Source of the DNA: Nostoc sp. DedSLP01
Lineage (GTDB): Bacteria; Cyanobacteriota; Cyanobacteriia; Cyanobacteriales; Nostocaceae
Length of the DNA stretch: 21,343 nt
Direction of reading: 5' to 3'
NCBI GenBank assembly: GCA_034530875.2
Contig: JAVRCJ020000072.1
Location: 1 to 21,343 of the forward strand
Shown here piece by piece: positions 11,408 through 16,180 of this stretch (position 1 is its first letter; each line of letters opens with the position of its first letter). Below the pieces are notes generated by a model. The model was not told the origin of the DNA. It did not search any database and saw nothing but the letters and a program-made list of their open reading frames with translations. The position numbers and the translations under genes were made by a program.

Positions 11408-11635
11408 ATGTTTAAACGTCGCACAATACTAGCTGGTCTAGCTGCGCTTAGTTTCACTTTGGCCATTGGTACAAAAGTCTATGGACAAACGGCTACCGGG
11501 CCAGATGCTTGGGAGACTGTCTATAACGAAGCAGTTGCCGGGGCAACAAACATAATTTCAGTTCCGCTGTTGGGTTCCTTATTATCAAATATCCTGCAAA
11601 TAGTCTTCAACTTCGCAGGTTTTTGGGGCGGTTGA
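11408..11635 (+). CDS. Small exported protein with twin-arginine-like signal peptide
   Basis: 75 aa from ATG 11408. The signal MFKRRTILAGLAALSFTLAIGTKVYG is followed by a mature region of about 49 aa with an amphipathic/hydrophobic C-terminal helix. Confidence 0.65.
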   Translation: MFKRRTILAGLAALSFTLAIGTKVYGQTATGPDAWETVYNEAVAGATNIISVPLLGSLLSNILQIVFNFAGFWGG

Positions 11636-11790
11636 CCCTGTGTTTCATACTCAAACAGAGAAACAGTTCAAGTAGAGACTTCTGCCATCTGATTTTTGGT
11701 AATTGCTGCGATCGCCTGACCATATCATTTATCGGTCAACGCATATTATCCCATAGCCCAATATTCGATAACCCGTGAGGAGTTTTTTCT

Positions 11791-13059
11791 ATGTTCAAAC
11801 CTCGCGCAATTTTTAGCGCCTTAGCTGCGATTGTCATTGCTACACAGATATATATACAACCCGCCGTCGCTGCTGGAGGGACATGTAACCCAACTTCGCT
11901 TAACCTACCTGTATGTCCAAGTACGGCATCATCAGACACAGCTACTTTCATTGACCCAACTGCCACAATTACCAATCCAACCAATATTACTTTGGGCGAA
12001 AAAGTCTACGTCGCACCATTTGCCACGTTAGACGCTACTAGTGCCTCCATTAGCATCGCTGCAGATTCTAACGTCCAAGACCAAGTAAGCATTACAGCTT
12101 CGGGAAGTGGAGTACAGATTGGAGAGCGAGTAATTATGGCACACTTGGCCACCATCAAAGGTGCAGCCAAAATCGGTACTCAAGGTTCAACTGGGCCTTT
12201 TACTAACTCAAACACCAATACTGTGTTCAACAACGACATTCCAGAGACATTTTTGGCCTTCAATTGTGAAATTGACGGTGCAACTGTAGAAAGAAACACA
12301 GTAGTCAACTTCTTGGCGCGGGTTGGACCTGGTGTGACCTTACCTGCTGGTAAAGTTGTCCTGCCAGGTAAAAACGTCACAACTAACTCACAAGCTAGTA
12401 ACGGCAGCTTAGGGAAGGTGACAAACTTGACAGAAGCGGACGTTGCATTGATGGAAGGTATCATCGAAGTCAACGAAGCATTTGCCAAAGGTTACACAGA
12501 GTTAGCCAGAGCAGACTTGACAAAGGTAAAAGGGATAAATCAAGCTCCCGTCACAGCTTTTAACAGCGGAGGAGTACCTAAATTAGCTGGGGTTGAAACC
12601 CGCAATCCAAACTTCCGTAACCGGATCATCGGCAATGTAGTTCTGGAAGATTCTTTCACAAGCCTCAACTACAAAATAGGTAATAGAATTTCCCTGCGTG
12701 CTGATGAAGGTGAACCTTTTAACGTCGGGCAAATTTTTGGTATGGCTAACGATGTTGTGTTTCACGCTTTAGAAACAACTAGCTTGACTGTTGGCGATTA
12801 TATTGGTTACGGGCCTCGCGCTCTGGTTCATGGTGGTAGACAGGTTGTCAATGGTGTTGCTGACGGCCCGGAAACCAGCTTAGGTGATTATATAGGTCTA
12901 GGGCCGGACTCCGTTATATTCCGCTCAGTTATTGGCAGCAAATCAGCAATTGGTAAAAAAAGCGCAGTCTTCAACTCTACATTACCTTCCAGAACGTATG
13001 TCCGTTCTAAAGTCATCTATGCTGACAACGGCAACCTAATTTCATCTGTGGAATGGTAA
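11791..13059 (+). CDS. Secreted tandem gamma-class carbonic anhydrase-like protein (two left-handed beta-helix domains)
   Basis: GAGGAG RBS and a signal peptide ending AVA. Hexapeptide repeats. Cam/CcmM-type motifs: FIDPTA, SNVQD, MAH and EVNEAFAKGY in domain 1; LRADEGEPF, FHALE and LVHG in domain 2. Confidence 0.85.
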   Translation: MFKPRAIFSALAAIVIATQIYIQPAVAAGGTCNPTSLNLPVCPSTASSDTATFIDPTATITNPTNITLGEKVYVAPFATLDATSASISIAADSNVQDQVSITASGSGVQIGERVIMAHLATIKGAAKIGTQGSTGPFTNSNTNTVFNNDIPETFLAFNCEIDGATVERNTVVNFLARVGPGVTLPAGKVVLPGKNVTTNSQASNGSLGKVTNLTEADVALMEGIIEVNEAFAKGYTELARADLTKVKGINQAPVTAFNSGGVPKLAGVETRNPNFRNRIIGNVVLEDSFTSLNYKIGNRISLRADEGEPFNVGQIFGMANDVVFHALETTSLTVGDYIGYGPRALVHGGRQVVNGVADGPETSLGDYIGLGPDSVIFRSVIGSKSAIGKKSAVFNSTLPSRTYVRSKVIYADNGNLISSVEW

Positions 13060-13092: not shown

Positions 13093-13145
13093 ACCCCTCC
13101 CAACCTCCCCGCAAGTTCGGGGAGGTGTAGCAGCCGGTGGGGTTA
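13093..13145. repeat. GC-rich palindromic dispersed repeat
   Basis: ACCTCCCCG..CGGGGAGGT hairpin inside CCCC...GGGG ends, the same architecture as the core of the 3356 element. It is preceded by tagcaatttgctgtgaggttgca, which resembles that element's left end. Confidence 0.6.
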
Positions 13146-13169: not shown

Positions 13170-13721
13170 ATGAATTTGAAAATATTGTCGCTAGTGCAAT
13201 TACAATGCCTACGCTTATTTATGCTGTTCACTTTGATATTGGGGCTAATATTGAGTTTTGATGGCAGTTCATCTATAGCTGCACAAAAGGATGGTCAACT
13301 TGGTATGAATCCTGTAAATACTGGCATTACCTCTAATCAGCCTCAAGTGGTACAACCTCCTGTCACCGGACTTGTTTCTACATTGTCTGATGAAGTTCAA
13401 GAATTACCAGATGAGTTAATTCGCTGGTCAACCTACTGGCAGCTTTGTTGGGAACCATATCCTGAAGCGAGAGAATATGAGCTGCAAAAGGTGCTTTCAG
13501 AAGGCAAATCACCAAAGTTGCAACGTCAAAGCGATCGCTGCTTTCGCATACAAGCTGCATCCAATGAAAATCAAAAATCACAAGGATTGCTCAACCGTGA
13601 ATTAATCTTGTTGATGCATAAGATTCAGCTTGGCTACCGAGTGCGAGCTATCTTAGATGGAAACCGCGTCAGTGAATGGTCTCCAGTAATGGCAGTAGGT
13701 GCAACTACTGCGCTTGAATAA
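13170..13721 (+). CDS. Hypothetical exported protein, possibly fibronectin type III-like beta-sandwich
   Basis: Hydrophobic signal-like segment LFTLILGLILSF..SIAA. The pattern LCWEPYPEAREYEL ... YRVRAILDGNRVSEWS resembles the FN3 W/Y/YxVxA/SxWS signature. The start is uncertain (13137, 13170 or 13221). Confidence 0.7.
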   Translation: MNLKILSLVQLQCLRLFMLFTLILGLILSFDGSSSIAAQKDGQLGMNPVNTGITSNQPQVVQPPVTGLVSTLSDEVQELPDELIRWSTYWQLCWEPYPEAREYELQKVLSEGKSPKLQRQSDRCFRIQAASNENQKSQGLLNRELILLMHKIQLGYRVRAILDGNRVSEWSPVMAVGATTALE

Positions 13722-13728
13722 AAAAGCA

Positions 13729-13762
13729 GGAAAGGGAAAAGGAAGGATCTTCCCTTTCCCCC
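13729..13762 (+). terminator. Hairpin after the three-gene exported-protein cluster
   Basis: GGAAAGGGAA / TTCCCTTTCC inverted repeat starting 8 nt after the stop at 13721. The U-tract is weak. Confidence 0.5.
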
Positions 13763-14144
13763 TGCCTCTTATCCTCGCAATGTCAACAAGCCTCTTCGAT
13801 CTAAATTTGAAGGTTTGAATCTGTTACTAAATTTTAGATAATTGGTATAAAAACAATGCACTAATTATCTATGTATTTATTTCTAAGCTCCTATAAAAAA
13901 GCGACTTAAAATCTAAAGTTAAAACATTACGTAATAGCTAAGTTATATGTATTAAATAAAACTTAAGTTGTATGCCAAAAGGTTGAATGTTATTTATCAA
14001 TATTTATACCCACAGAATAATGAATATCAATAATTAATTTAGCAGACTTACTTATAGACATTAATGGTTTTGAATACCAATCAAGTAAGGGGTTTTACTG
14101 TTCAAACAGTTAAACAACTTTCACTAATTTCAAGGAGTTATATT

Positions 14145-14453
14145 ATGTCAGACACTAGCAACCGTGGCTTTGCCTCTATGGATGAGGACAAGCAACGCGA
14201 GATTGCCAGCAAAGGTGGACAAGCTGCTCATGAGAAAGGTACAGCTCATGAGTTTACCTCCGAAGAAGCTCGTGAAGCCGGACAAAAAGGTGGACAAGTT
14301 GCTCATGAAAAAGGTACTGCCCATGAGTTTACTTCCGAAGAAGCTCGTGAAGCCGGACAAAAAGGTGGACAAGCTGCCCACGAAAAAGGCACTGCCCATG
14401 AGTTTACCTCCGAAGAAGCTCGTGAAGCTGGACGTAAGGGCGGGAGTTCGTAA
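14145..14453 (+). CDS. KGG-repeat general stress protein (GsiB/YciG/Con-10-like hydrophilin)
   Basis: AGGAG RBS at 14133-14137 before ATG 14145. RGFASMDEDKQREIASKGG motif plus repeated HEFTSEEAREAG[QR]KGG. Confidence 0.93.
   Translation: MSDTSNRGFASMDEDKQREIASKGGQAAHEKGTAHEFTSEEAREAGQKGGQVAHEKGTAHEFTSEEAREAGQKGGQAAHEKGTAHEFTSEEAREAGRKGGSS
14211..14435 (+). repeat. Three tandem 75-bp coding repeats
   Basis: The 25-aa unit KGGQAAHEKGTAHEFTSEEAREAGQ occurs three times. Differences between copies are almost all synonymous. Confidence 0.95.
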
Positions 14454-14500
14454 TACTTAAGTAACGAACTAATCTAATAGTTTTTGAACTAATTAACTGG

Positions 14501-14540
14501 CAAGTCTCGTGTTGTATTTTACAGCACGAGGCTTGAATTT
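14501..14540 (+). terminator. Stem-loop downstream of the KGG gene
   Basis: CAAGTCTCGTGTTGTA-TTT-TACAGCACGAGGCTTG, a 16-bp stem with two G-U pairs on the + strand. Confidence 0.7.
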
Positions 14541-15112
14541 ACATGAAATTTGTCTCCATACTCAAGCTATAAAATACTGAACGACTGATGGGCTATTTCT
14601 ACAACAAGGCGATGCAGCATCTACACTTGCGTATCTTATTTTTCAATAGAAGGCGGAATGTTTCAAGAGAGAGCAATTTAAACAGTTGAGTTTGATATAA
14701 TTCTCAATCAAACTGTTGGAATAGTCACTTTGTCTCATCAATTAAGCGCGTGAAACTGAACAGTCTTTGATTGGAAAAATAATGTCAAGATTGCAACAAT
14801 TAGGGAGTAAACTACTACTGTTTGATTCGGTAATACCCTCTAATTAATCGCTACAAATTATCGAATCTGATTTTAAAATAAAGTTATAGCAATCCTAGAT
14901 AGCAAAAGATAGTTTGTAAAGATTGCTGTTTTAAGTAAGGGGACATAATTAAATGTAAAATCCAAACCAGAAAAACCTTTTACTGTTGAGGGTTTTACCT
15001 CCTGCCTCCTGCCTTCTACTTAACAAACACCACAGAACTCGAAGAACGTCAAAAGCAGAGAAATCAGAAAAGTAATTGCAGATATTAGCTAGAGAGATAA
15101 CGGAGAGCGATT

Positions 15113-16180
15113 TTGCTGAATACAATCAAAGAGCCTGTATCAGGAAACCCATCAACAAAAGCAACAAGGTTGTGGATGCCCGAACAGGTAATGTTTACTC
15201 CTGCTGCTTTAAATGAGCCTTGGGGACAAAAGATTTTTGAGCGCGTGCAGTCACTTAACTTACCAATAAAAGAGTTACCACATAACCGTTTGACTGGGTT
15301 GCGTGGTGAAAGCGATCGCCAAACTTATGATATCGCCAAGCGTACTATGGCAGTTGTCACTGCACCGCCTAGCCACTTCAAACTCAGTCCAATTCCACCA
15401 TCGGCTGACTGGCAATTTCATATTGCTGAGGGTTGTCCAGCACATTGCCAGTACTGTTATTTGGCTGGGAGCTTATCAGGCCCTCCAGTGATTCGCACTT
15501 TTGCTAACTTATTGCCAATCTTAGAGAACTTAAGCACCTACGAAAAACCAGAACAATTAACAACTTATGAGGTTAGCTGCTATACCGACCCACTCGGAAT
15601 TGAGCATTTAACAGGTAGCCTTGCTGAGTGTATCCGTTATTTTGGGACTCGTAGCAATGCACATTTACGTTGGGTATCAAAGTTTGACGCGGTGGATAGC
15701 TTGCTTGATTTACCTCACAATGGTCATACCCACTGTCGTATGAGCGTCAATGCTGTACCTATTTCGGGAAGGTTTGAAGGCGGTACTGCATCTGTAAGAT
15801 CGCGACTTGAGGCGTTGCGTCGTTTGGCTGATAGTAAATATCGAATAGGATTGGTAATTGCACCCATTATTCTTATAGATAATTGGCAAATACACTATAG
15901 CGAATTGTTCGACTTAATTAGCGAAGTTCTTGATGTCAACTGTAATCTGACTTTTGAGTTAATTTCACACCGCTTTACACCAAACTCAAAAGAGATTTTA
16001 CAGACTTGGTATCCACATTCCAAACTAGAGATGGATGAAGAAAAACGCATTATTAAGCGCAATAAGTTTGGTGCGATTAAGTATGTTTATGATGCTGAGA
16101 CAATGAACATCATGAAGCGCTTTTTTCAAGGTGAGATTCAACAGCGTTTTCCAAATGCCAAGATTTTATATTGGACTTAG
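15113..16180 (+). CDS. splB: Spore photoproduct lyase family radical SAM protein
   Basis: CxxxCxxC motif GCPAHCQYCYL. YEVSCYTDPLGIEHLT aligns with the SplB H-donor Cys region. ELISHRFT and KFG..KYVY motifs present. TTG start with GGAG upstream; ATG at 15176 is an alternative. Confidence 0.88.
   Translation: MLNTIKEPVSGNPSTKATRLWMPEQVMFTPAALNEPWGQKIFERVQSLNLPIKELPHNRLTGLRGESDRQTYDIAKRTMAVVTAPPSHFKLSPIPPSADWQFHIAEGCPAHCQYCYLAGSLSGPPVIRTFANLLPILENLSTYEKPEQLTTYEVSCYTDPLGIEHLTGSLAECIRYFGTRSNAHLRWVSKFDAVDSLLDLPHNGHTHCRMSVNAVPISGRFEGGTASVRSRLEALRRLADSKYRIGLVIAPIILIDNWQIHYSELFDLISEVLDVNCNLTFELISHRFTPNSKEILQTWYPHSKLEMDEEKRIIKRNKFGAIKYVYDAETMNIMKRFFQGEIQQRFPNAKILYWT

Follow-up and report, generated by a model that had tools for sequence, protein, structure and literature searches.

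What becomes of an active site that lies between subunits when the protein that carries it is encoded as two domains of one chain? In Cam, the gamma-class carbonic anhydrase (CA) of Methanosarcina thermophila, three sites lie where subunits meet, and at each of them one subunit supplies two His and its neighbor the third (PMC8290278). The window analyzed here (the whole stretch of DNA, 21,343 nucleotides, from Nostoc sp. DedSLP01) contains a gene at positions 11791..13059 of the forward strand, on which every gene and feature below lies unless stated otherwise. From its open reading frame, homology and structural model, the gene encodes a two-domain gamma-CA-like protein of 422 amino acids (aa; P0001), referred to below as the anhydrase. 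The locus raises the question of how many metal sites such a chain can build, and from which residues.

A two-domain chain with a predicted export signal

Translation bears out that the protein has exactly three His, at positions 118, 325 and 347, as pointed out in a previous reading of this DNA made without database searches (the sequence-only reading). Besides Cys32 and Cys42 there is a third Cys at position 159; that reading passed over it, and it shows no conservation. Residues 1–27 (11791..11871) form a predicted signal peptide, again as proposed before, with a mean hydropathy of 2.8 over residues 7–17; by hydropathy, a comparable N-terminal stretch is found in 187 of 204 full-length homologs. 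(Most Nostocales homologs have a signal peptide that exceeds the one in the window by four residues.) Cys32 and Cys42, which delimit a short loop (11884..11916), had been suspected of forming a disulfide. This is likely: the two Cys are present in 203 and 205 of 218 homologs, respectively, and as a pair they rank second in covariation (z 10.7).

Domain 1 (11920..12513), delimited by superposition on Cam and by conservation, is a beta-helix followed by a C-terminal helix. Domain 2 (12523..13059) comprises a Cam-like N-terminal segment, in which F257 takes the position of Cam Trp19, and a beta-helix with an invariant C-terminal Trp but no terminal helix. In the AlphaFold2 model, a long helix likewise follows the first half and none follows the second. 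The genome (8.57 Mb) has a single copy of the gene. Two ORFs on the opposite strand (11736-11984 and 12180-12488) also recur across loci, but this recurrence is only a shadow of the conserved anhydrase gene, and they were rejected as genes.

The catalytic residues are divided between the domains

The sequence-only reading had aligned both halves to Cam by eye. Each half separately matches Cam in phmmer searches (E 3e-7 for half 1 and E 3e-7 for half 2), and with hhalign both align to the N-terminal domain of the CcmM encoded in the same genome at a probability of 98% (E 2e-14 and 5e-14). The direct profile match between the two domains is weak (probability 19%, E 0.0012), each half being nearer to CcmM than to the other.

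With Cam numbering taken from the Cam chain sequences in the alignments, domain 1 retains N94, Q96 and D97 (12070-12081), H118 (12142-12144) and N228 (12472-12474), equivalent to Cam residues 73, 75, 76, 117 and 202. Gone from this domain are the Arg59 motif, His81 (now T102) and His122 (K123). Domain 2 retains R303, D305 and E306 (12697-12708), H325 (12763-12765), E328 and H347 (12829-12831), equivalent to Cam 59, 61, 62, 81, 84 and 122. These assignments all agree with the by-eye alignment. So do most of the losses it had listed for domain 2, namely those of Asn73, Gln75, His117 (P342) and the terminal helix; the loss of Asp76, on the other hand, is only partial, since 100 of the 218 homologs have Asp at the corresponding position (320) and another 103 have Asn, so that one or the other is present in 203. 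The phmmer alignments to Cam slip around His117 and His122 because of insertions; in alignments to 1v3w, 3kwd and the CcmM of this genome, H118 and P342 fall on His117, and K123 and H347 on His122. The linker just past the domain 1 helix aligns with the N-terminal segment of Cam (3ou9), a resemblance that had been recognized previously.

In no single domain are His81, His117 and His122 found together, and the ligand set is complete only across both. The second-shell equivalents of Arg59, Asp61, Glu62, Asn73, Gln75, Asp76, Glu84 and Asn202 likewise occur once each, divided between the domains. On this residue pattern, three Cam-type sites are excluded for the anhydrase.

The reciprocal loss is conserved

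Is this division peculiar to one strain? A first homolog search gave 569 proteins among 8000 candidates, and a second, with an actinobacterial member as query, gave 423. Conservation was scored in 218 proteins of at least 385 aa, taken from 237 among the matches listed and 42–100% identical. The ligands are nearly invariant (H118 in 217 of the 218, H325 and H347 in all), as are Q96 (217), D97 (216), N228 (218) and R303, D305 and E306 (218 each); E328 is present in 192. At the mirror positions 102, 123 and 342, His occurs in 0, 1 and 0 of the homologs, i.e., once in 654 cases. The reciprocal loss, whose conservation had been proposed as a check, is thus family-wide among these full-length sequences, and metagenome loci follow the same pattern with a few motif changes. 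Certain features do count against a catalytic reading: E328, the Glu84 equivalent, is Ala in 24 of the 218 homologs, the Tyr200 position is Glu in 161, and the long acidic loop of Cam is missing.

Named homologs come from Nostocales, Geodermatophilus, Blastococcus, Quadrisphaera, Hymenobacter, Acidimicrobiales and Acidobacteriota. Most of them are annotated as acetyltransferase or hypothetical.

A single predicted site between the domains

Do the two partial sets come together in one chain? The monomer prediction envisaged in the sequence-only reading was made with AlphaFold2 for the mature chain (103 alignment rows) and reached, for the whole chain, a pLDDT of 96.3 and a pTM of 0.93, which indicates a confident arrangement of the domains. 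Domain 1 superimposes on Cam with Z 23.2 and rmsd 1.4 over 165 residues, and the best structural matches are all Cam entries; domain 2 was assigned the gamma-CA fold by sequence and by the strand pattern of the model. No solved two-domain gamma-CA chain was found among the fold matches listed.

Conservation is concentrated on the faces that would form the site. In the 103 rows, over which the entire protein has a mean entropy of 1.32 bits, the mean for the His117 corner is 0.38 bits in domain 1 vs. 2.05 in domain 2; for the His81/122 edge it is 0.42 bits in domain 2 vs. 1.77 in domain 1. Mean-field covariation, calculated from 487 rows at a shallow effective depth of 191, recovers the rung-to-rung pairs of the beta-helices. 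It yields a sole inter-domain pair with z of at least 7 among 36,108, N158-L345, which lies on the conserved, site-forming faces; the best inter-domain pair on the opposite faces reaches z 3.8. The faces were set by hexapeptide register alone, but after the pair list was known, and together with the low depth this makes the covariation supporting evidence only. Covariation between H118 and H325 (z 4.1) was set aside as evidence, as it reflects a clade of His-less relatives (see below).

The earlier proposal that the two domains form one complete site thus gains support from the family-wide reciprocal loss and the neighbor-subunit split of residues, as well as from face-specific conservation, one covarying pair and a confident fold as one unit. 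A single predicted metal site between the domains is very likely, and the reaction at that site is probably CO2 hydration.

A linked partner gene

The gene downstream of the anhydrase (13170..13721), absent from the sequence-only reading, encodes an exported-type, 183-aa protein, here called the partner, that was defined by its linkage, its model and its matches to fibronectin type III (FN3) folds. It has a hydrophobic N-terminus, a linker and a predicted fibronectin-III-like beta-sandwich with an inserted helix. The domain is modeled with a pLDDT of about 98, and the top 50 rows of its fold matches are mostly FN3, at middling Z scores of 7.2–8.6 and an rmsd of about 3; an Atlas comparison also points to the fibronectin type III fold. 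The partner matched no Pfam family and no PDB sequence, and none of 52 members gave an fn3 Pfam match.

How tight is the linkage? It was scored with a profile of the partner (alignment A3), at least 700 bases downstream being counted as enough flank. The partner is matched in 77 of 79 genome loci, including 75 of 75 with that flank (L073 has a remnant only), and in 33 of 54 metagenome loci. Of the 31 metagenome loci with enough flank, 27 have it (L117 as an upstream fragment) and 4 do not. At the Geodermatophilus locus L077, the partner gene overlaps the stop codon of the anhydrase. Among 251 genomes of the same family as the Nostoc strain, with subfamily carriers defined by an anhydrase E below 1e-100, the anhydrase is found in 54, the partner in 55 and both in 53; in one genome (G485) the anhydrase is accompanied by no more than a partner remnant, and two (G050 and G586) have partner fragments and no anhydrase. 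Six genomes of this family that have only a more distant subfamily have no partner. The genomes of this family are related to each other and do not count as independent cases, yet the link between anhydrase and partner spans phyla. With the thresholds applied, one or the other gene was detected in 6 genomes of a phylum-wide sample of 401. An intact anhydrase beside a mere partner remnant was seen at L073 and L139, possibly one case seen twice. Sequence identities of the two proteins correlate over 36 loci (Spearman 0.44), but this is confounded by kinship and was not used. No fusion of partner and anhydrase was found among 150 representatives.

A lipobox-like Cys pattern is present in 26 of 44 partner homologs and absent from the partner in the window. 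Two near-identical anhydrases (L116 and L118) carry a lipobox of their own and have no partner, and other members carry a DUF4214, FG-GAP, Ig or copper-amine-oxidase N-terminal domain in fusion. These self-lipidated members and surface-domain fusions suggest that anchoring is the need they share. The partner may thus anchor or complete the anhydrase, and it bears on the question of what occupies the third position of the ancestral trimer. Whether it physically binds the anhydrase is an even call.

Upstream gene and surroundings

Upstream of the anhydrase lies a gene (11408..11635) for a small, exported-type protein of 75 aa, also new relative to the sequence-only reading and recognized by HMM matches across loci and by its codon-position pattern. 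Its product begins with a signal-like stretch that recalls the one in the anhydrase, continues with a brief conserved segment and ends in an amphipathic tail. HMM matches are found in 72 of the 79 genome loci (L001–L079) and in 0 of the 54 metagenome loci, all of them in cyanobacteria. In 43 copies of the same length, mismatches by codon position number 600/357/1026, the third positions varying most. The resemblance to the start of the anhydrase suggests a local duplication; in some loci, the two starts agree at about 55% over a short stretch.

Scans of the window for promoters and terminators remained at chance level (10 vs. 8.6 and 5 vs. 2.8, respectively). G+C-rich inverted repeats lie in the gap between anhydrase and partner (13104-13127) and past the partner (13728-13763). 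Just downstream, at 14064-16180, the window encodes a KGG-repeat stress protein and a spore photoproduct lyase; the KGG gene is close to the anhydrase–partner cassette in only 2 of 79 loci. The cassette is interrupted in places: an insertion separates the two genes in L138, the 3' end is partly duplicated in L137, L059 has a second copy that is incomplete, and L070 has a split frame. Together with the patchy distribution, these interruptions hint at frequent gain and loss.

Relatives and evolution

With a profile of the family, 898 representatives were matched at E ≤ 0.001, 166 of them at E ≤ 1e-30. They include two exported single chains of ~825 aa with three Cam-like repeats and complete ligand sets (P0423 and P0400), which are natural single-chain trimers; in P0400, the third repeat lacks the helix. 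A second two-domain subfamily (L135, L136 and P0422) has the same His split but still has Arg59 and Asp61 in domain 1 and the Asp76 equivalent in domain 2. Its members at L135:3089-4270 and L136:2863-4053 are exported, cyanobacterial and less degenerate, with no partner nearby, and both two-domain subfamilies co-occur in some genomes. In P0403, P0418 and P0452, a module of this second subfamily forms the N-terminus of a chemoreceptor with a four-helix sensor, HAMP and MCP signaling domain, a candidate device for CO2 or bicarbonate taxis.

More distant two-domain representatives of at least 340 aa number 89, or 76 when 13 with a gap at a His site are left out. Of these, 49 keep the three His, 21 have none and 6 have one or two. 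The His-less relatives (P0348, P0350, P0353, P0358 and others) keep the Arg/Asp salt-bridge residues and the C-terminal Trp. The four His-less proteins included in a domain tree form one clade, so the 49/21 split does not represent 70 independent events. Since this clade keeps the fold and the salt-bridge residues, the scaffold can serve something besides metal catalysis.

Did the split arise only once? In a quick, unrooted tree of 56 domains, with the halves cut using a profile of the same anhydrase family, the 24 first halves all fell into one group and the 24 second halves all into another, with support of 99 each, a sequence-based result that is consistent with a single origin of the split. 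The relatives form a series, whose order we infer, from the intact single-chain triple via the half-split pair and the fully split pair to the His-less pair.

Comparison with known systems

Cam itself (1qrl, 1qrf and 1thj) shares with the anhydrase the fold, an export signal, the RxDEG and NxQD motifs, the three His, Glu84, Asn202 and the N-terminal, Trp19-type segment. It differs in being a homotrimer of single domains with three sites, whereas the anhydrase has two domains with half a set each and one predicted site. The long acidic loop is found only in Cam and the linked partner gene only with the anhydrase. The Cam equivalog NF040597 is the best family match, but at 69.7 bits it falls far below the cut-off of 380.

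A parallel in residue arrangement is the gamma-CA module of plant complex I, to which the anhydrase had already been likened. In the account of that module in PMC8290278, a heterotrimer has one complete metal site of three possible ones, to which one subunit contributes H130, N99, Q101, D102 and Y207 and a second one H107, H135 and R86, and the division of residues between the contributing units is identical to that seen here; the same account gives no direct evidence of activity for this site. The plant module differs in consisting of three separate beta-helix polypeptides, located in the matrix and bound to complex I, whereas the anhydrase is a fused, exported-type pair with no third beta-helix gene nearby.

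The N-terminal domain of CcmM (3kwc) is cyanobacterial and Cam-like, and both halves of the anhydrase align to it, as described above. However, CcmM is carboxysomal and homotrimeric, with a single such domain plus Rubisco-binding repeats, and the genome has a separate CcmM. The anhydrase has no Pfam match to the Rubisco small-subunit-like repeat and scores 55.5 bits vs. 550 for NF053794, and its neighbors in the window include no ccm genes. The CcmM–CcmN complex (7d6c) offers, by its entry title, a precedent for a partner on a gamma-CA-like trimer.

The external cyanobacterial CAs EcaA, EcaB and CahB1 would share with the anhydrase an extracytoplasmic place and the presumed reaction but belong to the alpha and beta classes (PMC10096703); section 4.3 of that review names only these two classes and leaves the role undefined. 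The CAs up-regulated in Nostoc punctiforme bear ordinary EC 4.2.1.1 labels in the supplement rows of PMC11890772. In the genome studied here (G000), six matches to beta-class CAs were found, along with a CcmM bearing catalytic residues, and none to the alpha class. A gamma-CA of Nostoc commune, NcoCA, has reportedly been characterized, to judge from reference titles. In the literature covered, with most subscription papers outside its scope, no description of the split two-domain architecture or of the partner was found.

Proposed mechanism and alternatives

The architecture, the reciprocal residue pattern, the conservation of that pattern and the gene linkage are direct observations. Building on them, we favor, as a reasonably likely reading, an exported CO2-hydrating enzyme whose two domains would enclose one metal center between them and which the partner probably fixes to the envelope. 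The chain would be exported and the C32–C42 bond made outside the cytoplasm. The His117-type corner and C-terminal helix of domain 1 would pack on the His81/His122 edge of domain 2 as neighbors do in Cam, so that H118, H325 and H347 ligate one Zn or Fe. Q96, N94 and N228 from domain 1 would orient the metal-bound water and CO2; R303 would bridge D305 and D97 and bind bicarbonate, and E306 and E328 from domain 2 would shuttle protons. Both outer faces, being without ligands and conservation, would form no second or third site. The partner would bind at or near the vacated third position and tether the enzyme to a membrane through a lipid anchor or its N-terminal helix. The physiological role, presumably equilibration of CO2 and bicarbonate at the cell surface, is the least certain step.

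Could the inter-domain metal site be real but serve another purpose, such as binding or sensing bicarbonate or CO2, or hydrolyzing a small substrate, e.g., COS? Losing two of three sites would be odd for a rate-limited enzyme, E328 is variable, the His-less clade persists, and a related two-domain module is fused to the chemoreceptors P0403, P0418 and P0452. The genome, moreover, is already equipped with the six beta-class genes and with a CcmM in which catalytic residues are present. Nevertheless, nearly the whole Cam catalytic set is kept, unlike in CamH-type proteins, and the best family match, far below its cut-off as it is, is the Cam equivalog; a non-hydrating site is rather unlikely. 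The least probable reading takes the database name at its word and sees an acetyltransferase or an inert hexapeptide-repeat scaffold. Most named homologs do carry the label, and there are weak LpxA/LpxD/GlmU profile matches, but the acyltransferase-type matches all stay under 25 bits, behind Cam and CcmM, while the invariant residues are those of an anhydrase and the best structural matches are all Cam. The predicted export also makes the use of acyl-CoA unlikely.

The site might also be formed in trans, by domain 1 and domain 2 of different chains in a dimer or ring, with further chains in the third position and the partner merely a chaperone or a co-regulated gene. Proteins of the gamma class normally form oligomers, and on the outer face of domain 1 the lower rungs keep D162, R177, G179, N195 and T197. 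In the second subfamily, domain 1 retains Arg59/Asp61 and domain 2 the Asp76 equivalent, which is what a second interface would require. The monomer, however, is modeled at a pTM of 0.93, and the linker has about the length found in the natural single-chain triples. Covariation between E226 and A256 ties the domain 1 helix to the segment directly past the linker, and the upper rungs are variable on both outer faces, all of which makes an arrangement in trans improbable.

Implications

That this gamma-class variant is real, broadly distributed and built around a single composite site is well supported, and it is tightly linked to a partner for which no description was found. The subfamily is present in about a fifth of the sampled Nostocales-type genomes (54 of 251) and also in actinobacteria, Bacteroidota and Acidobacteriota. 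More tentatively, a gamma-CA may here have left its trimer to become a fused pair with one site, an unrelated fibronectin-III-like lipoprotein replacing the third subunit and serving as anchor, and relatives preserving the steps, including pairs that are metal-less or wired to a chemoreceptor; we regard this fuller scenario as possible but doubtful.

The family is a clear example of how the duplicated halves of an enzyme whose active sites lie at interfaces can undergo reciprocal loss. With one site in a single chain, each catalytic residue could be mutated on one side only, which is impossible in homotrimeric Cam. If the favored reading is true, these proteins would constitute an extracytoplasmic gamma-class CA family concealed under an acetyltransferase label, and could serve as a soluble model of the plant complex I module, which has one site and unproven activity.
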